Assembly (NCBI GenBank): GCA_002633005.1
Contig: NMRA01000031.1
Coordinates: 1,318,858 to 1,382,857 of the forward strand
Direction of reading: 5' to 3'
Source: Phoronis australis
Taxonomy: Eukaryota; Animalia; Phoronida
Length of the DNA: 64,000 bases
The notes under the pieces are model-generated. The model did not search any database. It saw nothing but the letters and a program-made list of their open reading frames with translations, and was not told where the DNA came from. Below are positions 2,749 to 61,172 of the stretch, in pieces; position 1 is the stretch's first letter; each line of letters begins with the position of its first letter. The translations under genes and the position numbers were made by a program.

Positions 2749-5700
2749 ATGGCTGACGCGGAAAACCACAAAGAACAAGTAAGCAAAGGATGTTCAAACT
2801 TACACCCTTATAGCCGAAAGTGACTTGACGTTTTGGTGAAAATTAGAGTCATGTCTTGCGTTGTCTTGTAGATCCATGCACTTGGCGTACGTACAGCACC
2901 TTAAGACGTGGTAGGCGTATTTCCCTTTTCCGAGATGACTGGACAGTTGCCCCATGGCCTTGTTTTAAGTGCCCGCTTTCTGATGTTCAAATGTGGGCAA
3001 CTCATTTAAAGTCTGATACTTCCTAACCAGCATTCATATCGTCTCATGTCTCACAGTATTTATGCAGTCCCAACGCTTTTAGGCTCAAACTGAAAAGGAA
3101 TTGGGCAATGCGGCATACAAGGAAAAGAAATTTGAGGAAGCTCACGGACATTATGACAGAGCTATTAAGCTAGATCCGACGAACATCGTATTCTACACTA
3201 ATAAAGCAGGTATGGAGAATGCTTTTACTCCCCTGATCAACACTGTTTGCTTTTCTTCATTGTTGAAGTTAAAACTGCGTTTCCTCCAGTTTATCTGGCT
3301 AAGAAATCACAGCAGGCTCGATAAACGAGCTGCGGGCTGCAACGAGACCTGAAATTTGGAAATACAATTTCAGGTTGTGCCCTACTATCATTAGTCACTC
3401 CTGTGGTTTAAGTTAGACATTCTGTTAACTAAACTTTGCAAAGCTGCAGGTTAATTGGGCCACCTTAAGCAGTTGCCTATTCTGGAAGCATTCTTAGTTC
3501 TTCCACCATGAAAATGTAGGCCAACTTTGAACAACAGATCAGGTGATTATCGCCAAGATGAGCTCTCTTTGGCAGACTGCTTAAGGTGGACATTGAGTCT
3601 TCCGTGAAACCAAATGATGCATCTCGGCAGTGGGGTCATCGCCGAGGTGTTCCTTGTAGTTCACAGTAGCCAATACTCTCAGTCCTTTAATATACTCTAG
3701 GCAGGGACTCTTCACCTTTGTTGAACTCATTTGTACCCAGGTAAGCCAACGAAATTAAAAAATTCAGTTGTGCAAGTCCCTGTATGAATGCTACTCCCCT
3801 CAGTCAAGCACATCTGAAGGCATGGGAAACTGGTAAAGCGGTCCTTTTTGAAACCTAAACACTGACATCAAGAACTAGTTAAAAAAACTTGCCAACATGG
3901 ATAATTCGAGACCTGAAGACTGTTGGCTAATTCCACTGAAAGAACACATTTGACGACGCATGTGCTAAAGGGCTTGTATAGACAGTCGTGTCTCGGAAGT
4001 GAATTCAGCTTTATGATGAATCAACTTTGGGCAAATTTGAAATGTATTAGAACAGAATGTTTTGTTCCAAGCTGGATTAGTCTATGGGAAACTAGTGAAG
4101 CAGTGCATTTTCGGAACCTAGACACTGGCATCAAGAACCATGTAAAAATACTTGCAACATGGAGAATTCGAGACCTGAAGACTCTTGGCCAACTCCACTG
4201 AAAGAATGACATTTGAAGACGCATGTGTTAAAGCGCCAGGAAAGACAGTGGTGACTCAGATGTGAATTCAGCTTTATAGTGAATCAACTTTTGCCAAATT
4301 TGAAGTGTATTAAAACACTATGTTGCATCCCAAACTACGTAACTTAATATTTCAACTAACTAGTACAGTTTACACTGCTCTGGACAACATGACCGTCCCT
4401 CTTACTAACACGTGCAAACGAACAAATTCACTGCCACGGCATTGCCCGTAAGGTTTTCTAAATTCACAGAACCCTTTTGATTATTCCCTTTTATATTGAA
4501 TCAACCTAGACCCATGGCATCTGAGGTCGATACCCCAAGTGCCACTGATATTGGCCCCCTCTCATCACTTGCCCTTATTTGTTACCAGTGTCTGTTGAAC
4601 ATCTCTGGCTACGACAGTGATTGCGACATGACACATCGGGTTATTTCGACATCACGAAATGTTGTAGTCCAAAACAAGTGTTCTTGATAACCTTGCTCGT
4701 TTTTCAGCTGTCTACTTGGAGCAGAGCAAATTTGGGGAGTGTATCAAGATATGTGAACAAGCTGTCTCAGTGGGCCAGAACAACCAAGCAGACTGCAAGT
4801 TGATAGCCAAGTGAGAATTGTTCTGAAGAGTCCTAACATGAGTTGTTGCAGACTTGCCTGTAGATGGGTTTTAAATTCTTTTGAGATAGGACCTTATCGC
4901 ATGGGATTCTTTGGAGACAAAAGTACAACCGTGCAATGGTATTTGCCTAGATCAGAAGTTTAATTAAGGCAATTAAGCTCATTGATGCCAACTGTACCAA
5001 GAAATTGCTTGTAATACAGAAATTACGAGAATAGCAACTGCATTGTAAAATTGTTGAATTGACCAAAAACTTGGTACTTAGAACTGAGAAAAGAGAGAGA
5101 AGGAACTTTACATTCTAAGCATATGTCAGGAGCTTGTGGCAGAGACTTGTGCAATTTTTGTGACGTTAATGAATGAGACACGTTCTCGATGTATTCGCAG
5201 GGCCTTTGCACGGATGGGAAAATCATACCAGCGACAGAGTGACTTGAAAAATGCATTGCTGAATTTCAACAAATCATTGGCAGAACACAAGACCCTTGAT
5301 GTAGAGAAATTAGTGAAAGAGGTAAAAAGTGATGTGGAGTTAATTAAGCCACACAATTCAGTAATGTTTGGCTAGGAGTGGGTGATTGACCGGTGTCAGA
5401 TGACCACTGGTGTAGGAGTGGATCACTGGCCGATGTCTGAGGACCACTGGTGTGTGCTGGTAGAAGTGTACTGCAAGCTCCTAAATTTCACATTTTAATA
5501 TCAATTGATTTAAGTTGACTATTAGTTTGTCATATCTACTGGCAATTTAGTTCATAACTGAACACCTGATTATTAAAAACTGTACGGAGAATACGAGAGA
5601 GTGTCTGTGAAGCTATCTACTTACAGGAAATATCGTCAAATAAACAAATTTGGGACTGTGAACATTTCTGAAGGCCACGTGAATAGAACAAAGGATAATT

Positions 5701-8700
5701 CTTTTATAATCCTGTTATATTTCGTCACATATGTGAAGGTAGCAAAACTGTCAACCAAAGCCAACCATATAGGGCGGGCACTGGTTACAGTCGGGCTAAA
5801 AAGGACGACATGCAACTTTAGTGTATGAGATGTTGCTATCCATGTTATATACGAGAAAGAGGAGTTGGTCTTGATTATAGTTGAAATGTAAGGTTTCCTA
5901 TATGCTTCAAAGATGAAGTCAAAGAATTTTCCTATTTGTCTCTGTCTCTGTATATCAAATAATTGTTTGTTTGTGATAGATTTCAGAAGAGGAGCTGCGT
6001 CGGCTGGATGACGGAGAAACTGAGCTAGCATGTTCACTTAAAGAACTGATAAAGTCGGAAGGAGGGTCAGCGTCAGCTGGGACCATCTTTGTCAAAATGG
6101 GCAATATTCATAAAGAGCGGGCTTTGTTGACAAAATGTGTCCAACATTGTGTTACTGCTTCCGCGCTGTATAACGCTGCTTTAATAAGAACAAAGGATGG
6201 AGAGTTAGTTGAGGGCCTTGAGGCGACAGTAAGAGAAAATGAACAAGCATTTTGTGACCTATTGTCATTGCCTGGGAATAAAGTTCCCGTTGATTACAAG
6301 ACAGATACAAAAAATAGGTTGGACAGTATCAGAAAAAGAGTTTCACCAACACCCGAAAAATTATTGGAAGATTATAACAAGGCACTCCAGTTAGATCCAA
6401 CTGAAACTGAGCGTTTGTCATTGGAAAAAGAATTTGTAGAGGAAACTAGGCGAGTCTTTAAAGACATGTGTTCTGATATAATTTCTCTTGATGGATTTCT
6501 TATGACAAAAGCGGAGGAAATATTAGGGCCACCTCCACAGGAGTACGCAGCTATAGCCATGGGGTCTTTAGCTAGAGGAGAGGCAACGCCGTTTTCGGAT
6601 CTTGAGTGGGCAATTCTTATTGAAGATGAAAGTAAAGACCTTGAGTACTTCCGAAACTTGGTAAGACTTGTGCATTTATTTGTTTTAAATTTTGGAGAGA
6701 CATATCTTAGAACCATGAGCATCAAATCACTGAATGATTACTACACTCCTGGTGGGAATTGGTTTGTGGACGACGTAGTGGCACGTGGATTTGAATTCGA
6801 CAGTGCTGCCCCCTATGCGTGCAAGACCCCATTAGGACGAGCAGACAGACCAGAGAGACCAGGTATAGAGTTGATCAGAACACCTGAAAAGATGGCCGAG
6901 ATATGTGAATATGATACAGCATTAAAGGAAGGCTACATATTTGATCGCGTTCTGTCCACTACTGTGAAGCTTCATGGTAGCCATGATGCCGACCGTCTTG
7001 TGAAAGAATTTAAAGAAAAGAGGAAAAAATATAAAGCTGATGACCGAGTACTTAAAAAAGTGCATGTGGAAGTCATGGAGATACTTGGGCAATTCAGACC
7101 ACAAAAAATGCTTGTTAACGACATGGTTCATGACATTAAGCAAGATATGTTCCGATTGCCTACTGTGGTCATGAGCTTGTTAAAGACACTGTTCGGCGTG
7201 GACAGTGAATTCACATGGGACGTTTTGAGGGAACTGGAACACAACAAAATGTTGACAGAAGATGGTTGCCACAATTTACTGGTGGTTGTGTCCATTGTTG
7301 CTCTCCTGAGGCTAGTGATGTACTGTCAGAAGTCTTGTCAAGGGGAGTTGTTATCTTGGGCACCGCAGACCCTTGAGAGCGGTGATGCAGACTCCAAGAC
7401 AGTAACCCGACTTTACGGATACAAACCTATACTCATTCGGTATGCTTACACCGTTTTCCCGTTTGCTGAATGTATTGGTCGTATAGATTTCAAGACCATT
7501 TGTGAATCAAAGAAGCTGGGCGGTGTTTTCTATGATCGTAATCACTTTAACATTGCTTTACTAGAGGAGAAATTCATGTGTTTTGATGAATCTCGGCGTA
7601 ACTTCATTAAACACATTAAGAACATTTCGGATAATGCATGTGCGAAGGAAGCGAACAGGGAATGTTTCCTGAACATCAAATATGGACCAGACGGCGAGGA
7701 TGTTTCCTGCTTCGTTTACGACTTCACTGTTCTGTTGGCCTTACAAATGATCTCAAGCACTTACTTCCATGAGGGTATTTTCCAAAAGGCGTTAGAGTTC
7801 TGCAGATATGCGTCGGAAGCCATTACTAAGCAAGGTAAACCAAACAGTTCATCTGCACCAGGTCTCGATTTCGTTGAAAAGCATCAGAAATTATTTTCAG
7901 CAGACATCTTGCAGTGTGCATGTCAGGCCTATTATAGATTGGGCGATTACAACTCAGCTCTAGATTACGCAAACCAGTCGTTGGAAGTTTTCGAATGTCT
8001 AAGCGACTCTCTGGACAAAGTGAACAGTATAACAATGATTGGCACAATTTACAAGGCTATGGGCGAGTATGACAAAGGTATGAAGTTCTTAGAGGATGCA
8101 TTGAGTTTGCTAAACAACTGCGAGGACTTCCCTTCTAAACTACTGAAATATCACATTATTCATGTCAAGGGTCTTGTTCATGAAAAACGTAGAAATCACG
8201 ACGTGGCACTAGAAAGTCATAAAGAAGCGTTAAAAGGCTTACAAAAGATCTGTGGATACGGGGACCATTTCCAAATTGCGTCTGGTTTGCGAAATGTTGG
8301 AAGCGCTTACGCTAATAAGGCCGAGTATAAACTTGGGTTGAAATATTTTAACGACTCGCTAAGTATGAGTAAAACTCTAACTAAAGGGGAAGACCATCTT
8401 CTTACCATGGGATTGTTACGTAACATTGGAAACTTGCACCTGAGAACTGGTGAGATCGAATTAGGATTTAAAGTATGTCAGGAATCCTTAGATATGTGTA
8501 GTCGGATTTTTGGTGATGTTCATCCTGAAAGAGCAGAGTGTTTGTTGAAATTCGGTGTGGCGTGTGGCAAAGGCGGGAAACACGAATTGGCTTTGGAAAG
8601 TGTCAAGAAGGCCTTGCACATTTGGAGAAAACTCCTTGGTGATGTAGACCATCCCAACATTGCTAAATGTTTAGAAAACCTAGGGTTATCTTACTTCAAT

Positions 8701-8865
8701 AGGATGGAGTACCAAAATGCCTTGTCTCATTCTCAACAAGCATGGGATATGAGAGTTAGAATTTTCGGATACTCGCAACGTTATAAAATAGCTCGTTTGC
8801 GAGAGCTTATTATCTGGTGCTTAGCGATATGTGCATACAAAAACTATCTAGTATCCTGTACATGA
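2749..8865 (+). CDS. Chimeric HOP-TPR2A / DUF294-like nucleotidyltransferase / TPR-array protein, copy 1 (complete, about 1088 aa)
   Basis: Exons 2749-2778, 3083-3209, 4708-4810, 5201-5321, 5980-8865. All introns are GT-AG with compatible phases (0,1,2,0), total 3267 nt with an open frame. Exons 2-4 read AQTEKELGNAAYKEKKFEEAHGHYDRAIKLDPTN...TNKAAVYLE...LIAKAFARMG...NKSLAEHKT (STIP1 TPR2A-like). Exon 5 has GSLARGEATPFSDLE and C-terminal TPRs. Confidence 0.88.
3083..5321 (+). other. STIP1/HOP TPR2A-like domain encoded by three small exons (copy 1)
   Basis: The spliced peptide aligns without gaps, from memory, to human STIP1 [49 protein letters not shown]...QIAKAYARIGN...NKSLAEHRTPDV. Confidence 0.88.
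6541..7345 (+). other. Pol-beta-superfamily nucleotidyltransferase domain (DUF294/GlnD/GlnE-like) plus helical substrate-binding-like domain
   Basis: YAAIAMGSLARGEATPFSDLEWAILI fits the hG[GS]xxRxE-x4-SDx[DE]hhhh signature. Downstream are GFEFD...CKTPLG...ELIRTP, then DIKQDMFR...TWDVLREL...LLRL, resembling the DUF294_C/GlnD helical domain. Confidence 0.75.
7740..8790 (+). repeat. C-terminal TPR array (kinesin-light-chain/nephrocystin-3-type, roughly 7-8 repeats)
   Basis: Recurring units such as DHFQIASGLRNVGSAY...EYKLGLKYFNDSLSM, HPERAECLLKFGVAC...ALESVKKALHI and DHPNIAKCLENLGLSYFNRMEYQNALSHSQQAWDM. Confidence 0.85.
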
Positions 8866-10465: not shown

Positions 10466-11723
10466 GGGTAATTCTGCTCTTCACCGCGTTGTGAAACTTG
10501 TATCAAAATGTAAAGCTAAAGACCGGACGGGGTGCATGTAAAATCTGGGAATAAACCGATACCTTGCCCGTTACAGCCGTTTAAGTGAAAAACAATGCAA
10601 TAAACGTCATTTTCTTGTGTAACTCTCTGCCTTTTCTAACAATGAAAAGTATGTGTTCATTTTGAAAACAATACGCTCGTGTCACATGCACGCGCCATTT
10701 CCTAAATTTTCGCGACAACTTCGGAGAAGCAAAATTTTTTCTGAAATTCGTTTTTTTGGTATCGAAATTCTAAAAAGTTGTAATGAAGTGAAACCAGTTC
10801 CAATAACTTGTTGTGACATGTACGCAAGCTCGTGAAAGAACAGCAGTTGATTGAAGAATCGGCGAAAAAAGAAACTGGTCAATAGGTGACGCAATATTTC
10901 ATGGCGCCGAAAGCCGTCGCTAAAGATCGCTCCACAACTTTAGCAGCAGAATAACGGTAGAACGTCATTGTTTCCACCACTGTTAAATAATTTTGTTTAC
11001 TCAAGGAAGACTGTAGTTTTTAACAGCACTAATTTTGTGTCAGATTTTATCTTACCACTTTTTTACCCACATCGGTGCAAAGCTGTACGTTATTTATATA
11101 CAGCTTTGTACCAAGGCTACATGTTTTCATGCTTTCTGGCTAAGCACCATTTCCGACATGACTGACCAGTTTCTCCCACAGCACACTGGCGTCAAAGTAA
11201 GCATGGACTTTTTTAGGCAATGTAGGGCCAGCAGAGGCGATGGTTATTGCCTAGGGCTTTTTGGGAACATTTAATTTTTGTGCTTTGACCGCAATTGTTG
11301 CGAACTCGCTGGAGCAAGACACAGTGAATGGTATTAGAAGAAAGAACAATTGCAAATAGTTTGTTGAAACCCTGTTTTGTGTAAATTTATTGAGTTTTGT
11401 GTTTAATATGGACGGCTGAAGTGAAGCACCCGTGGAATTTCTTGTCGAGAGTGTCATATCTTGTTGTATTATAATAGTGTATTGAGAACGATCAGAAGCT
11501 GAGGACGCCTGTGGTTGCCCGGCCCTTGCAGTGTGGCCTAGATTTATATGTGTGAGGTAAAGTTGTTTCATCATTTCAGTGGGAAGGTGTCCGCTTTTTG
11601 ATTTTCAAATGTTGGCAACTCATTGAAAGTCTGACAGGTAAATGATTAAACAACTTTATCCACTTGGATATCTAACTAGCATTCATATCGTCTCATGTCT
11701 GACAGTTGTCTCAACGTGTTTAG

Positions 11724-14700
11724 GCTCAAGCTGAAAAGGAATTGGGCAATGCTGCTTACAAGGAAAAGAAATTTGAGGAAGCTCACCAACGTTATGACCG
11801 AGCTATTCTGCTAGATCCGACGAACATCATATTCTACACTAATAAAGCAGGTATGGAGAATAAGTGCTTTTACTCCCCTGATCAGCACTGTTTGTGTTTC
11901 TTCATTGTTGAAGTTAAAATCTGCATTTTACCCAGGTATCAGGCTAAAAGCAAAATCAAAGAAGGCTCGACAAACGAGCTGCAGACTGCGCATTGCGACC
12001 TGAAATTTGAAAATACAACCTCCGATTTGGCCTACTGTTATTAGTCACACCTGTGTGACTTGGGCATTCCAAGTTCCGAGTCACATCTGAAAGTGCTGCA
12101 GCAATGATTCTATTTTCTAGTTGGAACGCGGAAAATTCGTGTAACACAATACCAGAAAACGTTTCGGTTTTTTGGTGGTCAGTATTGAGAGACGTGAATT
12201 TCAGATTTGCGAGCTTGGATTTTGACCAGGTCGCAACCTAGTTCTCATGCTGTTGAGGGTGGATATTTTCATGGTAGGACTTGTTACCAAGAAGAACATA
12301 CAGTGCTCTTGATAACCTTGCTCGTTTTATTTTTAGCTGTCTACTTCGAGCAGCGCAATTTTGGGGAGTGTATCAAGACATGTGAACAAGCTGTCTCAGT
12401 GGGCCAGAACAACCAAGCAGATTGCAAGTTGATAGCCAAGTGAGAATTGTTCTGAAGAGTTCCTAGCATGAGTTGTTGCAGACCTTTCAGTAGATGGGTT
12501 TTAAATTCTTGTATGATAAGACCGTATCACATGGGATTCTTTGGAGACGAGAGTACAACCGTGCCATGAAATTTGTAGAGATCAGAGGTTTAAGGCAGTT
12601 AAGCTTATTGATGCCAACTGTACTGCAGAACTTAGGAGAATAGCAACTGCATGGCAGAATTGTTGAATTGAACAAGAGCTAAGGTACTGAGAATTAAAGA
12701 AATTTTTGTTAATTCAATAAATGGCACATTTCCGGTGTGTTCGCAGGGCCTTTGCACGGATGGGAAAAGCATACAAGCGACAGAGTGACTTGAAAAATGC
12801 ATCTGGGAATTTCAAGAAATCGTTAGAAGAAAATTGGACCCCGGATGTAGAGGAATTAATAAAGGAGGTAAAAGTGAAGTGGAGTTAAACAGGTTTCCTG
12901 ATTCAGTAATGTCTGGATAAGAGTGGGCTGTTACAGGCCGGTGTCAGAGGACCACTGGTGTAAGAGTGGGTCACTGGCTGGTGTCAGTGGACCATTGGTG
13001 TGTGCTGGTAGAAGTGTACTGCAAGCTCTTAAATTTTACATTTCAATGTCAATTGACTGAAGTTAACTGTTTTAATTTATTTGTTTTTTGTGACTACTGG
13101 CAATTTACTTCATAACTGTACACCATTGATGTACGGAGGATACGAGCATTTGTGAAGCAATCCAATTATTTGACTAGAACAGTGCGCAATTGTTTTATAA
13201 TCCTGTTATATTTTGTAAGAAATGTGAAGGTGGCTCATTCCAAATTTCTTTGAAAACCTTTAATTTCCTCACAAAAACTGCAAAGCAAAGCCAGCCACAT
13301 ATGGCGACACAGGTTGCAGTGTTGCTAATGCAACTTTAGTGTAACTACATGAACTTTTACTTTCCTTGTTGTACATGAGGAGTTGGTCTTGAGTATAGTG
13401 TTCAAATGTTGTAGGATTTCCTGTACTGTATGCTTCTAAGATGAACTCAAACCATGTTCCTATTTTATCACTGCTTATCACATAATTGTTTGTTTGTAAT
13501 AGATTTCAGAAGAGGAGCTGCGTCGGCTGGATGACGGAGAAACTGAGCTGGCGTGTTCACTTAAAGAACTGATAAAGTCGGAAGGAGGGTCAGCTTCAGC
13601 TGGGACCATCTTTATCAAAATGGGCAATATTCATAAAGAGCGGGCTTTGTTGACAAAATGTGTCCAACATTGTGTTACTGCTTCCGCACTGTATAATGCC
13701 GCTTTAATAAGAACAAAGGCTGAAGACTTAGTTAAGGGTCTTGAGGCGACAGTAAGAGAAAATGAACAAGCATTTTGTGACCTCTTGTCATTGCCTGGGA
13801 ATAAAGTTCCCGTTGATTACAAGACAGATATAAAAAATAGGTTGGACAGTATCAGGAAAAGAGTTTCACCAACAGCCGAAAAATTATTGGAAGATTATAA
13901 CAACGCACTCCAATTAGATCCAACTGAAACTGAGCGTTTGTCATTGGAAAAAGAATTTGTAGAGGAAACTAGGCGAGTCTTTAAAGACATGTGTTCTGAT
14001 ATAATTTCTCTTGATGAATTTCTTATGTCAAAAGCAGAAGAATTATTAGGGCCACCTCCACAGGAGTACGCAGCTATAGCCATGGGGTCTTTAGCTAGAG
14101 GAGAGGCAACGCCGTTTTCGGATCTTGAGTGGGCAATTCTGATTGAAGATGAAAGTAAAGACCTCGAGTACTTCCGAAACTTGGTACGACTTGTGCATTT
14201 ATTTGTCTTAAATTTTGGAGAGACATATCTTAGAACCATGAGCATCAAATCACTGAATGATTACTACACTCCTGGTGGGAATTGGTTTGTGGACGACGTA
14301 GTGGCACGTGGATTTGAATTTGACAGTGCTGCCCCCTATGCATGCAAGACACCATTAGGACGAGCAGACAGACCAGAGAGACCAGGTATAGAGTTGATCA
14401 GAACACCTGAAAAGATGGCCGAGATCTGTGAGTATGATACAGCATTAAAGGAAGGCTACATATTTGATCGCATTCTGTCCACTACTGTGAAGCTTCATGG
14501 TAGCCAAGGTGCCGACCGGCTTGTGAAAGAATTTAAAGAAAAGAGGAAAAAATATAAAGCTGATGGCCGAGTACTTAACAAAGTGCATGTGGAAGTCATG
14601 GAAATACTTGATCAATTTAGACCACAAAGAATGCTTGTTGACAACATGGTTCATGACGTCAAGCAAGATATGTTCCGATTGCCTACTGTGGTCATGAGCT

Positions 14701-15517
14701 TGTTAAAGACACTGTTCCGCGTGGACAGTGAATTCACATGGGACGTTTTGAGGGAACTGGAACACAACAAAATGTTGACAGAAGACGGTTGCCACAATTT
14801 ACTGGTGGTTGTGTCCATTGTTGCTCTCCTGAGGCTGGTGATGTACTGTCAGAAGTCTTGTCAAGGGGAGTTGTTATCTTGGGCACCGCAGACCCTTGAG
14901 AGCGGTGATGCAGACTCCAAGAAAGTAACCCGACTTTACGGATACAAACCCATACTCATCCGGTATGCTCACACCATTATTCCGTTTGCTGACTGCATTG
15001 ATGGTGTGGATTTCCAGATCATCTGTAAATCAAAGAAACTGGACGGTGTTTTCTACAGTCAGAGTTACTTAGATGTTGCTTTCCTAGAGCAAAAATTCAT
15101 GTCATTTGATAAAGCTAGGCAGAACTACATTTTACATATTGAGACCATTAGGAATAGTGCATCTGCGATAGAAGCGAACGAGGAATGTTTCCTGAACATC
15201 AAATATGGACCAGACGGCAGGGATGTTTCCTGCTTCGTGAATGACCTCTCTGTTCTGTTTTCCTTACGAATGATAGCGAACAACTACCTCCACGAGAGTC
15301 TTTTCCTCAAGGCATTAGAGTTCTTTAATTATACAATTGAAGCCACCTCTATGCAAGGTAAACCAACCATTTCATGTGGATCAGGCCGCGATGTATTTGA
15401 AAAGCATCGGAAACTATGTTCGGTGCACTCTCTGCAGGGTGCATGTGAGGCCTGTTATAGATTGGGCGATTACAATTCAGCTCTAGATTACGCAAACCAG
15501 TCGTTGGAAGTTTTCAA
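11724..15517 (+). CDS. HOP-TPR2A / nucleotidyltransferase / TPR protein, copy 2 (partial: first exon not found, 3' end cut at a contig join)
   Basis: Exons 11724-11850, 12337-12439, 12747-12867 and 13503-15517, with the same small-exon sizes and phases as copy 1. The frame is open until the N at 15518, after which the sequence jumps to intron-2-like DNA. Confidence 0.8.
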
Positions 15518-16436
15518 NGATATTGAGTCTTCCGTGAAACCAAATGATGCATCTCAACAGTGGGGTCATCACTGAGGTGTTACTTGTCACAGTAGCCAAT
15601 CCTCTTAATCCTTTAATATACTCATGGGAAGGACACTTCACTTTTGTTGAACTCATTTGTACCCAGGCAACGAAATTAAAAAATGCAGTTGTGCTAGTCC
15701 CTGCATGAATGCGACTCGCCTCGTGCTTATGATTTCCTTTCCACCAAAGAACCATATGTCATCCTGTTGCCAATGAAGACATGGGAGACTAGTAGTCAAG
15801 TTGTGCATTTTGGGAACCTAATCACTGGCACTATAACACGTAAGAACCAAAGAGAAATGCTTGCCTGCTTGCCAGCTTGGATAGTTCAGGAACTGAAGAC
15901 TGTTGGCTAATTTCCACCCGTGACCGAAAGAATACGTTTGAAGATGCATGTGCTAAAACGCTTGTAAAGACAGCGTTGTCTTAGAAGTGAATTCAACTTT
16001 ACAATGAATCATTTTTGAGCAAATTTGAAATGTATTAGAAGACAATGTTTTGTCCCAAGCTGGATTAGTTGATATTTAAACTTTAGTAAATTTCACACTG
16101 CTCTAGACTGTTCTATCAGAAATCACTCTTACTAAAATGTGTAAACAAACAAATACACTGCCACGGTATTGTCTGGAGCATTTTCTAATTTCACAAAACC
16201 TTTTCAGCTTTGTCTTTTTATACTGACTAACTATAGTCTGATGGCATCTGCGATTGTTACCCCAGTTACCACTTACGTTGGCTCCTCCCAGCGTTGCCCT
16301 TAATTTTTAATTAGTGTCTGTTAAATATTTCGGGCTACGCAGTGATTGCGACATGATGCATTAGGAGATTGCGACATCGCGAGGTATAGCAGTAAAACAC
16401 CAGTGCTCTTGATAACCTTGCTCGTTTTATTTTTAG

Positions 16437-19400
16437 CTGTCTACTTCGAGCAGCGCAATTTTGGGAAATGTATCAAGATATGTGAACAAGCTGTCTCAGT
16501 GGGCCAGAACAACAAAGCAGATTGCAAGTTGATAGCCAAGTGAGAATTGTTCTGAAGAGTCCTAACATGAGTTGTTGCAGACCTTTCAGTAGATGGGTTT
16601 TAAATTCTTGTATGATAAGACCGTATCACATGGGATTCTTTGGAAACGAGAGTACAATCGTGCGATGAAATTTGCAGAGATCAGAGGTTTAAGGCAGTTA
16701 AGCTTATTGATGCCAACTGTACCAAGAAATTGCTTGTAATGCAGAAATTACGAGAATAGCAACTGCATGGCAGAATTGTTGAATTGAACAAGAGCTAAGG
16801 TACTGAGAATTAAAGAAATTTTTGTTAATTCAATAAATGGCACATTTCCGGTGTATTCGCAGGGCCTTTACACGGATGGGAAAGGCATACAAGCGACAGA
16901 ATGACTTGAAAAATGCATCTGTGAATTTCAAGAGATCGTTAGAAGAAAACTGGACCCCAGATGTAGAGGAATTAATAAAAGAGGTAAAAAGTGAATTGGA
17001 GTTAAACAGGTTTCCTGATTCAGTAATGTCTGGATAAGATTGGGCCGTTACAGACCGGTGTCAGATGACCACTGGTGTAGGAGTGGGTCACTGGCCGGTG
17101 TCTGAGGACCACTGGTGTTTGCTGGTAGAAGTTTACTGCAAGCTCTTAAATTTTACATTTCAATGTCAATTGACTGAAGTTAACTATTTTAATTTATTTG
17201 TTTTTCGTGACTACTGGCAATTTACTTCATAACTGTACACCACTGATGTATGGATTATACGAGCATCTGTGAAGCAATCCAATTACTTGACTAGAACAGT
17301 GCGCAATTCTTTTATAATCCTGTTATATTTCGTAAGAAATGTGAAGGTGACTCATTCCAAATTTCTTTGAAAACCTTTAATTTCCTCTCAAAAACTGCCA
17401 AGCAAAGCCAGCCACATATGGCGACACAGGTTGCAGTGTTGCTAATGCAACTTTAGTGTAACTACATGAACTTTTACTTTCCTTGTTGTACACGAGGAGT
17501 TGGTCTTGAGTATAGTGTTCAAAGGTTGTAGGATTTCCTGTACTGTATGCTTCTAAGATGAACTCAAACCATGTTCCTATTTTATCACTGCTTATCACAT
17601 AATTGTTTGTTTGTAATAGATTTCAGAAGAGGAGCTGCATCGGCTGGATGACGGAGAAACTGAGCTAGCGTGTTCACTTAAAGAACTGATAAAGTCAGAA
17701 GGAGGGTCAGCGTCAGCTGGGACCATCTTTATCAAAATGGGCAATATTCATAAAGAGCGGGCTTTGTTGACAAAATGTGTCCACCATTGTGTTACTGCTT
17801 CCGCGCTGTATAACGCTGCTTTAATAAGAACAAAGGATGGAGAGTTAGTTAAGGGTCTTGAGGCGACAGTAAGAGAAAATGAACAAGCATTTTGTGACCT
17901 CTTGTCATTGCCTGGGAATAAAGTTCCCGTTGATTACAAGACAGATATAAAAAATAGGTTGGACAGTATCAGGAAAAGAGTTTCACCAACAGCCGAAAAA
18001 TTATTGGAAGATTATAACAACGCACTCCAATTAGATCCAACTGAAACTGAGCGTTTGTCATTGGAAAAAGAATTTGTAGAGGAAACTAGGCGAGTCTTTA
18101 AAGACATGTGTTCTGATATAATTTCTCTTGATGGATTTCTTATGTCAAAAGCAGAAGAATTATTAGGGCCACCTCCACAGGAGTACGCAGCTATAGCCAT
18201 GGGGTCTTTAGCTAGAGGAGAGGCAACGCCGTTTTCGGATCTTGAGTGGGCAATTCTGATTGAAGATGAAAGTAAAGACCTCGAGTACTTCCGAAACTTG
18301 GTACGACTTGTGCATTTATTTGTCTTAAATTTTGGAGAGACATATCTTAGAACCATGAGCATCAAATCACTGAATGATTACTACACTCCTGGTGGGAATT
18401 GGTTCGTGGACGATGTGGTGGCACGTGGGTTTGAATTTGACAGTGCTGCCCCCTATGCGTGCAAGACACCATTAGGACGAGCAGACAGACCAGATAGACC
18501 AGGTATAGAGTTGATCAGAACACCTGAAAAGATGGCCGAGATCTGTGAGTATGATACAGCATTAAAGGAAGGCTACATATTTGATCGCATTCTGTCCACT
18601 ACTGTGAAGCTTCATGGTAGCCAAGGTGCCGACTGTCTTGTGAAAGAATTTAAAGAAAAGAGGAAAAAATATAAAGCTGATGGCCGAGTACTTAACAAAG
18701 TGCATGTGGAAGTCATGGAAATACTTGATCAATTTAGACCACAAAGAATGCTTGTTGACAACATGGTTCATGACGTCAAGCAAGATATGTTCCGATTGCC
18801 TACTGTGGTCATGAGCTTGTTAAAGACACTGTTCCGCGTGGACAGTGAATTCACATGGGACGTTTTGAGGGAACTGGAACACAACAAAATGTTGACAGAA
18901 GACGGTTGCCACAATTTACTGGTGGTTGTGTCCATTGTTGCTCTCCTGAGGCTGGTGATGTACTGTCAGAAGTCTTGTCAAGGGGAGTTGTTATCTTGGG
19001 CACCGCAGACCCTTGAGAGCGGTGATGCAGACTCCAAGAAAGTAACCCGACTTTACGGATACAAACCCATACTCATCCGGTATGCTCACACCATTATTCC
19101 GTTTGCTGACTGCATTGATGGTGTGGATTTCCAGATCATCTGTAAATCAAAGAAACTGGACGGTGTTTTCTACAGTCAGAGTTACTTAGATGTTGCTTTC
19201 CTAGAGCAAAAATTCATGTCATTTGATAAAGCTAGGCAGAACTACATTTTACATATTGAGACCATTAGGAATAGTGCATCTGCGATAGAAGCGAACGAGG
19301 AATGTTTCCTGAACATCAAATATGGACCAGACGGCAGGGATGTTTCCTGCTTCGTGAATGACCTCTCTGTTCTGTTTTCCTTACGAATGATAGCGAACAA

Positions 19401-20499
19401 CTACCTCCACGAGAGTCTTTTCCTCAAGGCATTAGAGTTCTTTAATTATACAATTGAAGCCACCTCTATGCAAGGTAAACCAACCATTTCATGTGGATCA
19501 GGCCGCGATGTATTTGAAAAGCATCGGAAACTATGTTCGGTGCACTCTCTGCAGGGTGCATGTGAGGCCTGTTATAGATTGGGCGATTACAATTCAGCTC
19601 TAGATTACGCAAACCAGTCGTTGGAAGTTTTCAAAAGTCTAAGGGACTCTCGGGACAAAGTGTATAGTATAAAAACTATTGGCACAGTTTACTATGCTAT
19701 GGGTAAGTACGACGAAGCTATGAAGTCCTTAGAGGATGCACTGAGTTTGCTAATCAACTGCGAGGACTTCACTTCTAAACTACTGAAATATCACATTATT
19801 CATGTCAAGGGTCTTGTTCATGAGAAATGTGGAAATCATGACTTAGCTCTAGAAACTCATGAAGAAGCGTTAATAGGCTTACAAAAGATCTGTGGATACG
19901 GGGACCATTTCCAAATTGCATCTGGTTTGCGAAATGTTGGATGCGCTTACGCTAATAAGGCTGAATATGAACTGGGGTTGAAATATTTTAACGACTCACT
20001 GAATATGTGTCGAGCTCTAACTAAAGGTGAAGACCACATTCTTACCATGGGATTGTTACGTAACATCGGAAACTTGAACCTGAAGATGGATAAGGTATAT
20101 GGTTTGGCGGAATTGGGATTGAAAGAATGTCAAGAATCCTTGGACATGTGTAATCGGATTTTTAGTAATGCTGATCATCCTGAAACCGCAGCGTGTTTGC
20201 TTAAGCTTGGTGTTGCGTTTGGCAATAACGGGAAACCTGAATTGGCTTTACAAAGCCTCAAAAACGCCTTGCGCATTTGGAGAACATTTCTTGGTCATGT
20301 AGACCACCCTGACATTGCTACCTGTTTATTTAACCTTGGATTATCTTATTATTGCATGAAGGAGTACCAGTCTGCTTTGTCTCATTTTGAACTAGCAAGG
20401 GATATGACTGTTAGGATTTTTGGGGACTCACAACCTAAGAAAATAGGTATTTTTGAGAATTTCATTACCCTAGTTCGTAATTCTATGGCTGGGAAGTAA
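16437..20499 (+). CDS. HOP-TPR2A / nucleotidyltransferase / TPR protein, copy 3 (5' exons missing at the contig join)
   Basis: Exons 16437-16539, 16863-16983 and 17620-20499. The large exon is intact (920 aa from its internal Met). Upstream 15519-16436 is homologous to copy 1 intron 2. Confidence 0.85.
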
Positions 20500-21766: not shown

Positions 21767-22621
21767 NNNNNNNNNNNNNNNNNNNNNNNNNNNNNNNNNN
21801 NNNNNNNNNNNNNNNNNNNNNNNNNNNNNNNNNNNNNNNNNNNNNNNNNNNNNNNNNNNNNNNNNNNNNNNNNNNNNNNNNNNNNNNNNNNNNNNNNNNN
21901 NNNNNNNNNNNNNNNNNNNNNNNNNNNNNNNNNNNNNNNNNNNNNNNNNNNNNNNNNNNNNNNNNNNNNNNNNNNNNNNNNNNNNNNNNNNNNNNNNNNN
22001 NNNNNNNNNNNNNNNNNNNNNNNNNNNNNNNNNNNNNNNNNNNNNNNNNNNNNNNNNNNNNNNNNNNNNNNNNNNNNNNNNNNNNNNNNNNNNNNNNNNN
22101 NNNNNNNNNNNNNNNNNNNNNNNNNNNNNNNNNNNNNNNNNNNNNNNNNNNNNNNNNNNNNNNNNNNNNNNNNNNNNNNNNNNNNNNNNNNNNNNNNNNN
22201 NNNNNNNNNNNNNNNNNNNNNNNNNNNNNNNNNNNNNNNNNNNNNNNNNNNNNNNNNNNNNNNNNNNNNNNNNNNNNNNNNNNNNNNNNNNNNNNNNNNN
22301 NNNNNNNNNNNNNNNNNNNNNNNNNNNNNNNNNNNNNNNNNNNNNNNNNNNNNNNNNNNNNNNNNNNNNNNNNNNNNNNNNNNNNNNNNNNNNNNNNNNN
22401 NNNNNNNNNNNNNNNNNNNNNNNNNNNNNNNNNNNNNNNNNNNNNNNNNNNNNNNNNNNNNNNNNNNNNNNNNNNNNNNNNNNNNNNNNNNNNNNNNNNN
22501 NNNNNNNNNNNNNNNNNNNNNNNNNNNNNNNNNNNNNNNNNNNNNNNNNNNNNNNNNNNNNNNNNNNNNNNNNNNNNNNNNNNNNNNNNNNNNNNNNNNN
22601 NNNNNNNNNNNNNNNNNNNNN
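21767..22621. other. Assembly gap (N run) after a poly-G tract
   Basis: Continuous N. Other gaps at 41030-41037, 53372-53408 and 53946-54070; single Ns at 9774 and 15518. Confidence 0.99.
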
Positions 22622-24085: not shown

Positions 24086-25099
24086 GAGGGGGTAGGTGTT
24101 GCCCAAGGCTCAGCAGGCGGGAGATGCATCCCCAACTATAGGCAATGACCATCGCCTCTGTTGTCTGCTTCGGGCCAACAGAGGCGATTGTCATTGCCTA
24201 CCCCAACTCAAGCCAAGGCCTATGGTTTTATATTTAAAACCACATCCCATTTCTTATTTCTAGCTTTTTAAAAGTGATTTTAAGGCTAATTGGGTAGTCT
24301 CTTCTTCATTGTCGCCTTCACAATATCACAGGCATTATAGGCCTGTGACCACAGCACAGGCGTCCTTAGACAATTGCCATCGTCTGTGGCTGGCCCAGCA
24401 CAGACGATGGAGCTCCTATAGTAGCTTGATACGCCGGAAGCCTTTTGGCGAATTATGCCTCGCACTGACTAAAACATCAAAGTCACTTTGTTATAAATTA
24501 TATCTTTTGTGCCTAGAGGGACACCTTAGGAGGTCGTCGATGTATTTTAGTCCTTCCAACTCGTACAAATACTCCCGTTGTCAAACTTTTTCTTCGACCA
24601 GTCCCTCGTTCAGTTCCCAAAATCGGTAACTCGCCATTTTCACACTTCGCACGCTAGGGGATACATAGGTCTTGCCACCTGACGGGCGCAGTGTTGAAAA
24701 TGGCGATAGGAATTATGAATAGGCATTCCACTTAATAATATTATGGACTTTTTCAAATAGCCTGAAGTACATATTTATAGGCGTTAACTTTTTCTGTCAC
24801 TTTATGAGTATTGATGAGTGTAGCGTCGCTAAGTTTATTCATTGTTGAAGTCTTATATTTAACTTGTTTTGCCGTAAACTCGGGAACCAGGAAATGCTAA
24901 GGGTCCATTGTGAAAGAATAGTTCTCAAAGTTAAATTAATGTTGGCATCCTTCACATTTCTCCACCCTTATATGTTCTTTCATTTGTAAGATACAGGTGA
25001 GATTTTTCTTCTTAGTTACTGTCCTAAATATACTATTTGCACCAGGAATATAAAATTTGACGTTTTCCTATTCCTATTGACAGGTAGTCTGAGGAGACC

Positions 25100-28000
25100 A
25101 TGTTGAACCTTAGCCGCCAGATTTGCAGAGCTTCACAATGGGCTTTAAAGGCACCGCACCTGTTCAGTCTTTCCTGCCCAAGATGTGATGGTTCTAAGGC
25201 TCTCGTGAAATTACGCTTACCTGTGCCGAACACTTACACACGGACTGGGCCTTGCCTACGTCCTTTCAGCACAGCAGAGACTACTGATAGTTTGGACACT
25301 AGTGATGGCCATTCCAATCCTTTCATAACCACTGAATCTAGTCCAGTGCAACACAGTGCATTTGACAGCCCGACTGAGCTATTTGCTAGTATTCACCAAG
25401 CAGCCAGCGATGACGTGAACACTGTGTTAGAATTGGTCCATCTGCATAAAGATGCCATGTTTGAAGAACATGTATTAGAGTGTCTACACAAGCTGTTTGT
25501 GTATGCATGCTCAAACAGTACTGTGAAAAATCACCTAGTGACCAGTCTGCGTGAAGATCGCCGGTTCCTTGAGTTGTGTGTGGTTTTGATTCAATTGGGA
25601 CCTAGGTTTTCACCTGCTCAGATTGTCAGTACTGTGTTTAAGATGAAGAGACTAGGCCTTGACAGTAAGTCGGTACCCCTACAAGTGTTTCTGGAGTTGG
25701 GAAAGCATGTCGTTAATGACTTGAAGTTGGTCGATGTTATTAACATGGCTGACAGTATTTGGGACATGGAGGAAACAAGTCAGGTCATCATATTAAAGGA
25801 AGCTCTGCGTGCCTTAGCACTGGCACGGTTTGATGAAACTCAAAATCTTATTAAAGTGGATTCACTCATTAAATATGTGAATTGTTTTGGCGAGCATCTG
25901 AGTCAGATGCAGGCAGCGTCTCTGATGTTTTGTCTTGAGGATGAAATGCATGATCTCAGCTACCATTACAGCCTTAGACTGTTGTCTTGTGCTCATAAGC
26001 TTCTGATACAGACTGCTCCTGTTATCAACCACTGCATGTTGAAGGTTGAAAAGAGAGCCGCTAAGAAACCTCTGTGTAAAGATGATGTATTGACTGTGCT
26101 GAGAGCTTACGGAAATTTGAAAATTAAAAACTTGGATTTGTTGAAAACATTGCTTCAGTTTATAGTGATGTCAGATGAGTATACCGTGGTTGACCTGCTT
26201 GAAGTGTCAAGATTGCTCACCAGATGTCAGTATAGTTGTTCTCAGATGCTGGATTTGCTTGCGGACAAGCTGGTTGATCCTAGTTATGATGTTTCTGCGA
26301 TGGATGTTCATGAGCTTTGTCAGGTTATACATAACTTTGGGTATATGGACTACAGCAGTGACGTAATCGATCAACTCCTAGGCTCTTTAACAAATGTGCT
26401 GTGTAAATCTTCAGAGGCGCTGAACTTATCATCTTTGATTCAGTGCCTGTTGGACCTGGCAGTGTTGAACAACTTTCCAGAGAAATTATTACAAAATATT
26501 TTGACACATGAAACTTTGGGTAAGTTCACCGAGTTTCATTACTTGTTGTTGAAGTATGTCATGAATTTTCTAAATGCAAACGTGCAATGAGTCATTATGA
26601 TAACATTACCTGATGATATTCAAAATACAGTTGGTTCTGGTCTCTACCCTGAGTAATTTTGAGACCTGCAGTCATCGACTGAAAAATTTCAAAAATGTCC
26701 TCCCACATAAATTTCATGGAAGGTCTACAATGATTTTTGAATTGTTCCAAAAAGGCACATGAGCATGGTTTGAAACCTGGTGATTTGTCAAGCGATGGAT
26801 GAGATAAAGCAAACTCTGCATTATTTCTCCTTGTCTCGGGGTACATACATCACCAATCAACAAGGCTTTTAAAATCAGAACCAATGGCTATTTTTAGCAT
26901 TCTAAGGTAGAACGATTTTGTGTCAGATTCATGACTATGGTACAATATGCGCGATAAAAGATGGAACGTGAGTTTGATACAGTTGTATTGGGCAATAGTC
27001 TGATATAACGTGCCCGTATTTTGAGAACCAGTTTGATGCCCGTTATTTAGTGGAGAAAACTGCTTCTCAAAATTCGGGCACGCTATATCTGACCATTAAA
27101 GTTGTATTGCTATTATCAGGAATCTCGAGGCTTATTTGAGGCTTATTTAAGTCGCGTAAAAAAATCTTGCTCTATTTCTCTATTGCTCGGGTTTAAGCGC
27201 ACTTCTAATGTTTTTCTTTCAGACAAGATCAGCGAACCTACTCTCCTTGACGACTGGCTGTTATTGCGAGAAGTCACATATCAGCGATCTAACATGGCAG
27301 ATTCTTTGTAAGGCGTTGAATGTCACAGGCTTCTATATTCTTAGCACCAAGAGGTGGTCCTACTTGTACTTATTTGGAGATGCTGCTGGATATCTACCGT
27401 GTTCTCTAAGTTTATTTCGTGTCAAAATGATTGCCAATTTTTCTACTTTTCAATTGCTGATTTTTTGCTGCAAATAATTGTAAGTTTGTGAAATGTTGTT
27501 TTACGGCATTCCCACTCCACAAACCAAAGGTAACAGGAGACAAAGAAAGTTCTTAATATTTGTTTTTGTTGCAAAATTAGCCATTTAAAAAAATTCCATT
27601 TGTTCGCCATGTTGCTAAATTGGTGAAGAATTGCCTTTTTTATGACTACCGAAATATACCCCTCCTGGCGTTTAAACAAACTTTGACCTTAATTGTCAAA
27701 ACCTTTTCCAAAAATCTGAAACAATATTCAGTACATTTTTGTGCATCAAATCAATTGGAGTGGTTCCTTGACATGAGCAAAATGGCCGGTGGTGTTTTGG
27801 TTTGATCCACTTGCTCAAATTTATATGCACATGATAAAAGTCATGAGTCTAGCTAGAAACATGTCCAAACTTGGTTAACTTTAAAACAACATGACTGATT
27901 GCACTCCAGTGAAATTTTCATGTATTGTACTTTTTGCTCATTCTCCAAAAAGTTGTTAGACATTATTGTAGTTTCAGTACTTTTGGGATACCTTTGAAAC

Positions 28001-59800: not shown

Positions 59801-61172
59801 CAAGTGTCAAAGGGTTCCACACTACACAGTTGCTCACAACTAACTTAAGTGATTGTCATACTACAGTTAAGAAATTAGTAATTCATGGAAAAATCTTCAT
59901 TACCAGACACGGTCAAATAGTCATTCATAACCACAGTGTCACACAAAGTAGTCAAAACTAACAATTTTCTAGCCTCAAAACAAGCCAACCCTTACCTGTC
60001 ATGTGACTGTTGACAGTCTCTGAGCGGATCATGCTCAGTTCCATCTGCGTTGGATTGTACATACTCATAATGGCTCGACCAGGCAACGTTGTGCTCTTGT
60101 TACGCACTGGTGATCCCTCAGGTGACTGGTTGGTGATGGTTCCAGATTCAAACCGTTTAATGATATCGCGCACACTGGAAGTCTTCGATTGGCCGACCAA
60201 GTGAATGTTAGCATCTGAACAGCGGCTGTTTATAGAAGAGTTACTAGCAAACTTCAGCTCAAGCTGAGCTCTCAAAGCGACTACACTGGGTCTAGACTGC
60301 CTGCTCGGGGAGTCGAAGGCTGTAGGCAGGTCTCCAAGGGTACTAGTTGTGAGACTGTTAGAGTCCTTGATTGAACTGTGCATTGCAGGCTGTTGACTGT
60401 GAGAGATGGGAGTCTCTGCACTGATATTTCCACTCTCGTCATGTGGTGACCTCTTTGGAGTACTTTGTACATTGGGTGAGAAGCTCGACTGAGTGAGGGT
60501 AGGCTGCGCATTATCACGAGCATCCACAAAATCAGTCGTCTGAACACCAAAGTTCGGGGAACATAACGGAGAACGCAGGCTCTTGTAGCGACGTGACTGA
60601 ACGTAGTTCTTGTCTCTACGGTGACGGAATGAATGACTTTGATTACGTTGGAATGAGTGAGAGATAGAGGCATTACCTGCCAGCAGGGTCTCCTCATAGT
60701 GGCTTGGGGGCATGGGGGAATGGACTATGCCCTCTGGGGGAATGTCCTGGATAAATGATTCATGGAGAGAGCTACCACCAGTTTGGTCTGACAAAATAGC
60801 AGACACGTCATGACTGGCAGCAGTCAGTTCAGCTGTCATGCTTTTCATGAGTTCAAGAGTTACATCCGGATAAGTATCCTCCAGGTTATCTTTAATTATT
60901 TCATCGTAAGTCAGTGTGACAGAGTGGTCGTAACTCTTCCGGACGATTGATTTGATCGGTGACCGTATTCCATCTCTATCCGAAGATCTGGATTTAGTTG
61001 AGTTGCCCCGGCTAAGCGATCCAGTTCCATTGATAGTCGGCATGATGGAAGAATCACATGACTCGAAGCCCAAATCTGAGCTCTCTTCAACCGACACTCC
61101 ACCGTACTTCCTGCCTTTTCTTGACTTGGTCGCTTGACCTTTGCCCCCGGTTTTCTTTGGAGACCTGCTCAT
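35802..61172 (-). CDS. DLGAP: Disks large-associated protein (DLGAP/SAPAP/GKAP family), at least 761 aa
   Basis: Exons 61172-59996, 42478-41970, 40877-40772, 40409-40318, 39732-39580, 38517-38430, 35962-35802; phases compatible, 2286 nt open. GKAP/GH1 domain DGNYFLKLV...LPEDASGFIRAAVGKANLLMSQKFEQFRSLC...TTSQDLAGFWDMVELQVEDV...KSNNW and tail AREEARKRLLAAKRA...EIFLPE. Further exons in the 17-kb intron cannot be excluded. Confidence 0.85.
36715..38110. repeat. Diverged internally repetitive element in the last DLGAP intron
   Basis: Recurring aaa(c/t)tgccactag..ggc.ccacagta.tcaga motif at about 36720, 36863, 37920 and 38062, each followed by catctgccaa-like blocks. Confidence 0.5.
47188..47385. 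repeat. 31-bp minisatellite, about 6.5 copies
   Basis: Unit gacagtagagtcttcctgctagtaccagaag in direct tandem, no spacers. Confidence 0.9.
47548..47702. mobile_element. Family C palindromic repeat (alternating inverted units)
   Basis: gcatcaaactggttctcaaaat and attttgagaaccagttt alternate; same motif as 26998-27093. Confidence 0.65.
49120..49280. repeat. Tandem repeat of about 60 bp, about 2.5 copies
   Basis: tactatg.gccattgtatctag.ctag.cctcaa.atga.atacccggtaca repeated. Confidence 0.75.
49628..49962. mobile_element. Dispersed repeat family B, copy 2
   Basis: Colinear with 23715-24085. Confidence 0.7.
50900..51230 (+). pseudogene. Highly decayed non-LTR retrotransposon (CR1/L2-like) reverse transcriptase fragment
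   Basis: Frameshifted remnants in the expected order: AFHS (AFD), NSRQQPIKI (RxQxV), QLYILC (LGPxLF), TPDDS (YADD), WADNSLLLF (W...N.m.FN). Confidence 0.4.
53409..54643. repeat. Tandem duplication of about 550 bp, bracketed by gaps (possibly two haplotypes)
   Basis: 53409-53945 and 54071-54643 are near-identical, and each starts with poly-G right after an N gap. Confidence 0.85.
55074..55152. repeat. (CA)n-type microsatellite
   Basis: Interrupted CA run; a shorter one lies at about 54578-54595. Confidence 0.95.
56686..56957. mobile_element. MITE-like dispersed repeat, family A, copy 2
   Basis: Inverted termini catgggcacacc...ggtgcgctcatg; colinear with 698-966. Confidence 0.65.
58873..59014. 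mobile_element. Short MITE with GCGGAT...ATCCGC termini
   Basis: Imperfect terminal inverted repeats gcggatttaga ... cctggatccgc. Confidence 0.45.

Follow-up and report, generated by a model that had tools for sequence, protein, structure and literature searches.

A HOP TPR2A-like head spliced in frame onto a putative GlnE/DrrA-type nucleotidyltransferase in Phoronis australis

What is a piece of the co-chaperone HOP doing at the head of an enzyme gene? The question is raised by a 64,000-nucleotide stretch of the Phoronis australis genome (here called the window; contig NMRA01000031.1 of assembly GCA_002633005.1, positions 1,318,858 to 1,382,857, forward strand). The window is eukaryotic DNA with spliceosomal introns, and between 2.7 and 20.5 kb it carries three related units on the + strand, each of which closes with a very long exon. 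An earlier note, made from the letters alone, had proposed that short exons ahead of the first long exon encode a captured TPR2A domain, a tetratricopeptide repeat (TPR) module of HOP (human STIP1), with its Hsp90-binding residues intact. We find that these HOP-derived exons belong to the enzyme gene and are spliced in frame onto the 961-codon exon 5. The reading that we favour, and hold to be slightly better than an even bet, is one of tandem, expressed fusion genes in which a TPR2A cassette from the host lineage's HOP sits on a GlnE/DrrA-like nucleotidyltransferase–TPR protein, with the head predicted to dock on the MEEVD/IEEVD tails of Hsp90 and perhaps Hsp70.

The span of the HOP-like module, 3083–5321, coincides exactly with exons 2–4 of copy 1, which are directly bordered by AG acceptors and GT donors. 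Together with a candidate exon 1 and exon 5 they form a single open frame of 1088 codons, in which exons 1–4 would make up a head of about 127 residues. On their own they amount to 351 nt with phase 0 at both ends, a symmetric cassette of the kind expected for exon shuffling, by which the module may have been acquired. An in-frame TAG at 3080–3082 closes exon 2 on its upstream side, and the start codon of copy 1 must therefore lie in an upstream exon. The exons of all three copies are free of stops and frameshifts. Copy 1 comprises the following features.

2749..2778, + strand: candidate coding exon 1 (MADAENHKEQ, donor GTAAGC), predicted from sequence, with RNA depth on the correct strand in the bin 2600–2813.
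3083..3209, + strand: exon 2, TPR motif 1 of the HOP TPR2A-like module, with the equivalents of K229, N233 and N264 (phmmer; RNA joint).
4708..4810, + strand: exon 3, TPR motif 2, with the equivalent of E271 and bases 1 and 2 of the K301 codon (phmmer; RNA joints).
5201..5321, + strand: exon 4, TPR motif 3 and capping helix, with the last base of the K301 codon, the R305 equivalent and K308 (phmmer; RNA joint).
5980..8865, + strand: exon 5 (961 codons and stop), a helical N-region, a GlnE/DrrA-like nucleotidyltransferase, a helical middle and a C-terminal TPR_12/TPR_10 array (open reading frame, Pfam, AlphaFold2 and Foldseek).
6562..6606, + strand: predicted catalytic motif G195-x11-D207-L-E209 in exon-5 numbering (alignment).
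7900..8799, + strand: C-terminal TPR_12/TPR_10 array, bounds approximate (Pfam stretches, exon-5 residues 641–933).

Copy 2 repeats this layout, again on the + strand.

11724..11850, + strand: exon 2, with the K229, N233 and N264 equivalents kept (sequence; low RNA depth).
12337..12439, + strand: exon 3 (sequence; RNA joint).
12747..12867, + strand: exon 4, with IAKAFARMG (sequence; RNA joint).
13503..15517, + strand: exon 5, about 671 codons up to the single N (15518) that interrupts it; the open reading frame, 13503–15575, is cut short.

To establish whether the short exons are spliced to the long one, we turned to three RNA-seq runs carrying the same species label (X1, X2 and X3), which were mapped to the window. 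In copy 1, exon 2 is joined to exon 3 (3209>4708) by six reads from X1, exon 3 to exon 4 (4810>5201) by nine reads from X1 and two from X2, and exon 4 to exon 5 (5321>5980) by one read from X1 and six from X2. These joints are GT..AG, and the first mate maps to the minus strand, where a stranded library should place it if the RNA is of the + strand. In copy 2, exons 3 and 4 are joined (12439>12747) by 7, 2 and 2 reads in X1, X2 and X3, and exons 4 and 5 (12867>13503) by 8, 0 and 8. The joint from the HOP-like module to the enzyme exon is thus in frame at two loci, supported by seven reads for copy 1 and by 16 for copy 2.

These joints bear directly on the suspicion that the fusion is an artefact, either a STIP1 pseudogene fragment or an assembly chimera adjoining an unrelated gene. 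The assembly does give some cause for it: the long exon of copy 2 is cut at the single N, at 15518, where it runs on into intron-like sequence resembling intron 2 of copy 1 (~3588–3640), and copies 2 and 3 are spaced by a clean 4117 bp. Against this stand the reads that carry exon 4 into exon 5 at both loci and the intact exons of every copy, and we give the artefact almost no credence. The earlier note had itself allowed that the exons might belong to a separate STIP1 pseudogene never spliced to exon 5; the in-frame joints 5321>5980 and 12867>13503 show otherwise.

To identify the head, each exon was searched singly by phmmer against all sequences in the Protein Data Bank (PDB). All three align without gaps to HOP: residues 3–42 of exon 2 to human STIP1 227–266 (7kw7_E) and to 1elr_A 6–45, residues 1–33 of exon 3 to STIP1 268–300, and residues 1–36 of exon 4 to STIP1 302–337 and 1elr_A 81–116. 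Residues 267 and 301 (human numbering, used from here on) are the two split codons, interrupted by introns of phase 1 and phase 2 respectively, and a phase 0 intron follows at about residue 341. For each of exons 2–4 the best natural PDB match is a HOP/STI-1 TPR2A domain, and the three matches are colinear with STIP1 227–337. Exon 3 illustrates how specific the resemblance is: all seven of its matches at E<0.01 are HOP/STI-1 TPR2A chains (best 4gcn_A, Caenorhabditis elegans STI-1, 1.2e-7), and the other six of its 13 matches at E≤10 are designed TPRs or SPAG1 (E 0.03–1.7). Judged by sequence, the TPR2A match is more than chance. The earlier note's derivation of the module from HOP TPR2A is borne out by these searches.

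The module was also taken to stand without the rest of HOP, and that holds across the window. Full-length HOPs align best to their TPR2A region in tblastn and only weakly through TPR1 and TPR2B; with four such queries, no TPR1, TPR2B or DP exons were found in the 64 kb, the remaining matches being weak and of generic TPR type. Where a HOP/STIP1 orthologue has the order TPR1-DP1-TPR2A-TPR2B-DP2, the locus has TPR2A-type exons only, and exon 4 splices to the nucleotidyltransferase exon. By sequence and clamp residues, the module is best described as a member of the HOP TPR2A family and not as a HOP orthologue.

The residues that hold the Hsp90 tail in HOP are retained. Copy 1 has EKELGN (K at 3095–3097, N at 3107–3109), YTNKA (N at 3200–3202) and IAKAFARMG (R at 5211–5213), the lysine of IAK being the split codon AA/G (4809–4810 and 5201). 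Copy 2 carries the same motifs with the same residues at the clamp sites, and copy 3 has IAKAFTRMG. These are the motifs that had been read from the letters, and the gap-free alignments of exons 2–4 place them on K229, N233, N264, K301 and R305 of human STIP1, so that the five-residue MEEVD clamp is complete in copies 1 and 2. In PMC7524759, K229, N233, N264, E271, Q298, K301, R305 and N308 are given as the key MEEVD-binding residues, and the isolated TPR2A domain is described as binding the MEEVD peptide.

To see how much of the HOP pattern has been kept, we compared the spliced modules, in one alignment, with the TPR2A regions of 120 listed HOPs. K229, N233, Y236, N264, A267, E271 and R305 are invariant in all 120 and K301 is present in 119; copies 1 and 2 keep every one of them. 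Among 26 columns conserved in at least 95% of HOPs, copy 1 and copy 2 each keep 24, and H247 is R in copy 2. Position 298 is L in the module, as in 65 of the 120 HOPs. From these residues, docking of the head on an EEVD tail is a well-founded prediction.

The head also carries a trace of where it came from. Among longer proteins, a word search on exon 2 found a single match, a HOP of 541 residues (76% identity across the exon) whose relatives include the Hydractinia and Hydra HOPs (64%). Over the whole module, the best identities to any of the 120 HOPs are 59.8% (P0068), 59.0% (P0063) and 57.3% (Actinia). We built a tree by a quick LG+G4 search from copies 1 and 2 and 68 of the 120 HOPs (70 rows, 118 columns), omitting the partial copy 3 and 52 mostly vertebrate or insect HOPs. 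Copies 1 and 2 are united with a Shimodaira–Hasegawa-like approximate likelihood ratio (SH-aLRT) support of 100, and their stem measures 0.42 changes per site as against 0.08–0.10 for the nearest HOPs. They fall beside P0063 and P0068 (89) and then P0069 (86), within the group that holds the hydrozoan (Hydractinia, Hydra) HOPs. The alignment has few columns, and the placement is therefore suggestive rather than firm; it is consistent with a head that was copied from the HOP domain of the host lineage itself and then evolved fast.

What the head is attached to was assessed by profile, motif and predicted fold. The Pfam family DUF294 matches exon 5 of the three copies with 33.2, 33.9 and 33.3 bits (cut-off 21), SidM_N stays below its cut-off (19–20 versus 27), and TPR_12 and TPR_10 match strongly in the C-terminal third of all three long exons (TPR_12 at 3.9e-32 in copy 1). 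Residues G195, S196, D207 and E209 are invariant in all 19 aligned family members (16 relatives and the window copies), giving an intact metal-binding motif G-x11-D-x-E; the form G-X11-[D/E]-X-[D/E] is given for GS-ATase and DrrA in PMC8097203. An AlphaFold2 model of exon-5 residues 1–640 has a mean predicted local distance difference test (pLDDT) of 81.9 and a predicted template modelling score (pTM) of 0.84. Against the PDB, Foldseek found only four matches at E≤1e-3, namely DrrA–Rab8a (6yx5_B, 1.3e-6) and three chains of Escherichia coli GlnE (3k7d_A/B, ~2e-6; 1v4a, 2.4e-6), all with probability 1.00; the next match, at 2.4e-3, is a designed repeat protein. The TM-scores are modest (TMt 0.43–0.54), over alignments of 379–556 columns at 11–13% identity. 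All four significant matches are protein AMPylases or de-AMPylases.

Taken by Pfam, motif and modelled fold together, exon 5 is a predicted DUF294, GlnE/DrrA-like nucleotidyltransferase, and 'nucleotidylate', the earlier note's word for what it does, is therefore a reasonable term for the enzyme part. The C-terminal domains of GlnD/GlnE and of DUF294 enzymes have been placed in the HEPN clan (PMC3710099). Pfam reports no such substrate-binding domain (DUF294_C or GlnD_UR_UTase) in the window proteins at E≤0.01, and reports it in the relatives P0005, P0155 and P0156. Neither NACHT nor NB-ARC, the domains by which a STAND NTPase would be recognized, matches any of the three exon-5 products (E≤0.01); by its domain content, the exon-5 enzyme is not an NLR.

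Copy 3, the last of the units, lacks part of the head.

16437..16539, + strand: exon 3 (sequence; RNA joint 16539>12747).
16863..16983, + strand: exon 4, with IAKAFTRMG and the K301 and R305 equivalents kept (sequence).
17620..20499, + strand: exon 5 (959 codons), DUF294 nucleotidyltransferase and TPR array (open reading frame, Pfam).

No exon-2-like sequence was found upstream of its exon 3, and in a comparison of upstream regions aimed at exon 1 of copy 2, similarity appeared in the intron flank only. Over the first 670 residues of exon 5, copies 2 and 3 are 98.8% identical, with a synonymous divergence (dS) of 0.027. RNA depth is zero over 15655–16328, and six reads (4 + 2) join exon 3 of copy 3 back to exon 4 of copy 2 (16539>12747). 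Together with the 4117-bp spacing, this suggests either an internal tandem duplication of that length or two haplotypes assembled in series, and the three copies may really be two genes. Between exon 5 of copy 1 (5980–8865) and of copy 3 (17620–20499), dS is uneven, at 0.07–0.10 over the first 470 codons and 0.33–0.68 in the rest, a pattern suggestive of gene conversion across the 5' half (head and nucleotidyltransferase) or of a mosaic origin for the C-terminal sensor half. The C-terminal halves diverge strongly between paralogues (58–61% identity). A crude Nei–Gojobori ratio of non-synonymous to synonymous rates (dN/dS) gave no sign of positive selection, being below 1 (0.22–0.67) in every segment.

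The family of the enzyme part is large: with residues 1–640 as the query, a full HMMER search returned 1573 representatives at E≤1e-3, of which 281 reach E≤1e-30, and even the best are only 32–37% identical. A HOP-like head was found in none of 17 relatives from the word search and none of 149 HMMER representatives (0/166 in all); generic TPR matches, weak and of at most 33% identity, occur only in the relatives' C-terminal arrays. We scanned 59 of the 149 representatives, picked for long N-terminal extensions, for other heads with Pfam. Among those found are CARD (P0200, P0207), an IRF DNA-binding domain (P0206), OTU (P0217), a RickCE-like protease (P0252, P0281), ankyrin (P0222), EGF (P0300) and an eIF5A-like domain (P0181). 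An M28 peptidase lies at the C-terminus of P0159, P0219 ends in a guanylate cyclase tail, and several members have two or three nucleotidyltransferase modules. Some of these heads may be gene-model fusions. Given that relatives carry varied N-terminal heads, the HOP head would be one more interchangeable module on a conserved nucleotidyltransferase–TPR chassis, and the family looks like an uncharacterized immune-receptor-like or effector-like one of animals and intracellular bacteria. Separately, look-alikes in an atlas form DUF294–TPR clusters that are mostly eukaryotic, with one from Chlamydiota; these are leads only.

How might such a protein work? Under the favoured fusion reading, the head would bind the EEVD tail of Hsp90, the natural TPR2A ligand, and perhaps that of Hsp70, as the isolated HOP domain does. 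The tethered catalytic domain could then transfer adenosine monophosphate (AMP) or another nucleoside monophosphate (NMP), with the chaperone, a co-chaperone or a client in the complex as acceptor, or alternatively could itself be switched on by chaperone binding. The C-terminal TPR_12/TPR_10 array would serve as a surface for ligand sensing or assembly. By analogy, the logic would be that of CHIP, PP5 and the TPR–Fic enzyme FICD.

The same clamp evidence would equally suit a head that recruits Hsp90 merely to fold, stabilize or de-repress its own enzyme, in the manner of PP5, with substrates unrelated to chaperones. PP5 is held inactive by its own TPR domain until Hsp90 binds, and Hsp90 is also required by proteins of the NLR type. 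But the 166 relatives examined all do without such a head, which means that in other lineages the catalytic core folds unaided by it, and we regard this kind of docking as unlikely.

Several observations weigh against the favoured reading. On the transcript side, no joint among those listed connects candidate exon 1 to exon 2 in copy 1, or exon 2 to exon 3 in copy 2, where depth is low; most reads are 95–99% identical to the window rather than at least 99%, and they may in part stem from alleles or paralogues of the same architecture. On the side of the clamp, copy 3 taken alone has K301 and R305 without K229, N233 and N264. Position 308, an MEEVD contact, is K in all three copies (codons 5220–5222, 12766–12768 and 16882–16884) and in none of the 120 HOPs, which have N (81), H (27), S (6), T (4) or A (2). 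R290, conserved in at least 95% of HOPs, is Q in all copies, and F270 is L in copy 1. Over the module, copies 1 and 2 differ by 25 non-synonymous and 10 synonymous changes (dN/dS 0.60), as expected of a sequence that is under constraint but loosely so, much more loosely than would be expected for HOP itself. Finally, the CARD and IRF heads of relatives fit a role in immune signalling at least as well as one in proteostasis.

The derived lysine at 308, common to all copies, may reflect a shift in peptide preference, and with Q290 it leaves room for an altered one. Taken further, the groove could have drifted after capture so as to bind another acidic C-terminal peptide or none, with the clamp residues kept as part of the fold. 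K308, Q290 and L270 would suit such retargeting, as would the loose constraint and the long stem of the tree. But clamp side chains face the groove and are dispensable for the TPR fold, both full copies keep all five of them along with Y236, A267 and E271, and position 308 is itself variable in HOPs. We consider a retargeted or empty groove distinctly improbable.

A different use of an intact clamp would be as bait. The head could be an integrated decoy or guard that mimics HOP and traps a pathogen factor attacking HOP or its contact with the Hsp90 tail, signalling through the nucleotidyltransferase and the TPR array. The family's layout is NLR-like in its three parts, with swapped heads (two CARD, one IRF, one OTU, two RickCE-like and one ankyrin among the 59 of 149 scanned), and the genes form a tandem cluster in which the C-terminal halves have diverged; the head, moreover, has a long branch in the tree and the unusual substitutions N308K and R290Q. 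Yet the protein lacks a NACHT or NB-ARC NTPase module, dN/dS is below 1 in every segment, and the relatives' heads may partly be gene-model fusions. A bait could dispense with the 24 of 26 conserved columns that are present here, though it might also keep them, and for this host no pathogen factor targeting HOP is known. On balance, we think the decoy or guard unlikely, and continue to favour a fusion enzyme that docks on chaperone tails.

The remainder of the window contributes some further observations. Between copies 1 and 2, at 10600–11600, RNA covers both strands, many read ends are loose, some joints are odd (opposite strands at 10857/11097) and no open reading frame of note was found; the source is probably a mobile element or other repeat, or else a transcript that overlaps. 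Loose read ends just before 8875 (six in X1, three in X2), ten bases past the stop of copy 1, mark either another exon or transcript start or an alternatively spliced 3' end. Downstream of the cluster, 25088–26590 (+) is an open frame of 500 codons that contains a FAST_1 domain (FAST kinase-like), an ordinary eukaryotic neighbour gene, and 59958–61181 (−) is a serine-rich open frame of 407 codons in which Pfam matches nothing (E≤0.01). At 30382–30667, an 18-bp unit is repeated in tandem about 16 times. Assembly gaps (runs of N) lie at 21767–22621, 53372–53408 and 53946–54070, the last flanked by a 300-bp direct repeat (53410–53709 and 54078–54377).

In the accessible parts of two reviews, the metazoan or eukaryotic AMPylases named are Fic enzymes and SelO only (PMC8097203, PMC12409994). 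The literature searched, with partial coverage, yielded no description of HOP TPR2A fused to another enzyme or of animal DUF294–TPR proteins, and among the listed papers that mention DUF294 none is by its title on an animal protein. Our most ambitious proposal, which we advance tentatively and consider doubtful, is that the family is a third, undescribed class of animal protein AMPylase, with a GlnE/DrrA fold, an immune-receptor-like build, interchangeable heads and a TPR sensor array, in which HOP TPR2A was captured here to write NMP marks on Hsp90/Hsp70 machines or their clients upon a sensed signal. Should the favoured fusion reading hold, a nucleotidyltransferase would join the short list of enzymes that ride on Hsp90/Hsp70 EEVD tails, and a GlnE/DrrA-type AMPylase would be placed in animals. 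The known members of that list are CHIP, PP5 and the large immunophilins. The locus is also a clean, RNA-supported case of phase 0-0 exon shuffling, with a housekeeping co-chaperone as the donor and a fast-evolving gene family of many heads as the recipient, and the clamp residues and the D207/E209 motif offer a testable handle on that large uncharacterized family.

Set beside known systems, the head most resembles the TPR2A domain of HOP/STIP1/Sti1 (1ELR, 4GCN, 7KW7 chain E), with three TPR motifs, a capping helix and an identical set of clamp residues that extends to Y236, A267 and E271. It differs in standing alone at the N-terminus of an enzyme, in its identity of at most 59.8%, in K308 and Q290 and in its long branch. 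As a whole, the protein recalls the ubiquitin ligase CHIP (U-box) and the phosphatase PP5, in which an N-terminal three-motif clamp TPR of the EEVD type is followed by a catalytic domain that the TPR brings to chaperones; the CHIP TPR is among the weaker PDB matches of exon 2. Here the enzyme is instead a GlnE/DrrA-like nucleotidyltransferase followed by a long TPR_12/10 array, and the TPR would derive from HOP TPR2A by recent copying rather than being orthologous to that of CHIP or PP5.

Its catalytic part is closest to the AMPylation domains of GlnE and DrrA/SidM, with which it shares the only significant fold matches, the G-x11-[D/E]-x-[D/E] motif and, in DUF294, a Pfam match above cut-off. 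Unlike them, it is flanked by helical and TPR regions and encoded in an animal genome that has spliceosomal introns; it has E rather than D as its second acid and is only 11–13% identical. NLR-type proteins likewise combine a variable head (CARD or IRF in relatives, HOP TPR2A here) with a conserved central module and a C-terminal TPR array, and form tandem clusters with divergent C-terminal halves, but the central module here is a nucleotidyltransferase and not a STAND NTPase. A further functional parallel is FICD/HYPE, whose TPR head, according to PMC8065156 and PMC8097203, selects the Hsp70 BiP as the substrate of its AMP-transferring domain. FICD is located in the lumen of the endoplasmic reticulum. 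Both proteins pair a TPR head with an AMP-transferring or AMPylase-like domain, but the catalytic folds are unrelated, FICD with a Fic fold and TPRs that are not EEVD-clamp domains, the phoronid enzyme with a polymerase-beta-like nucleotidyltransferase and the putative EEVD clamp of HOP.

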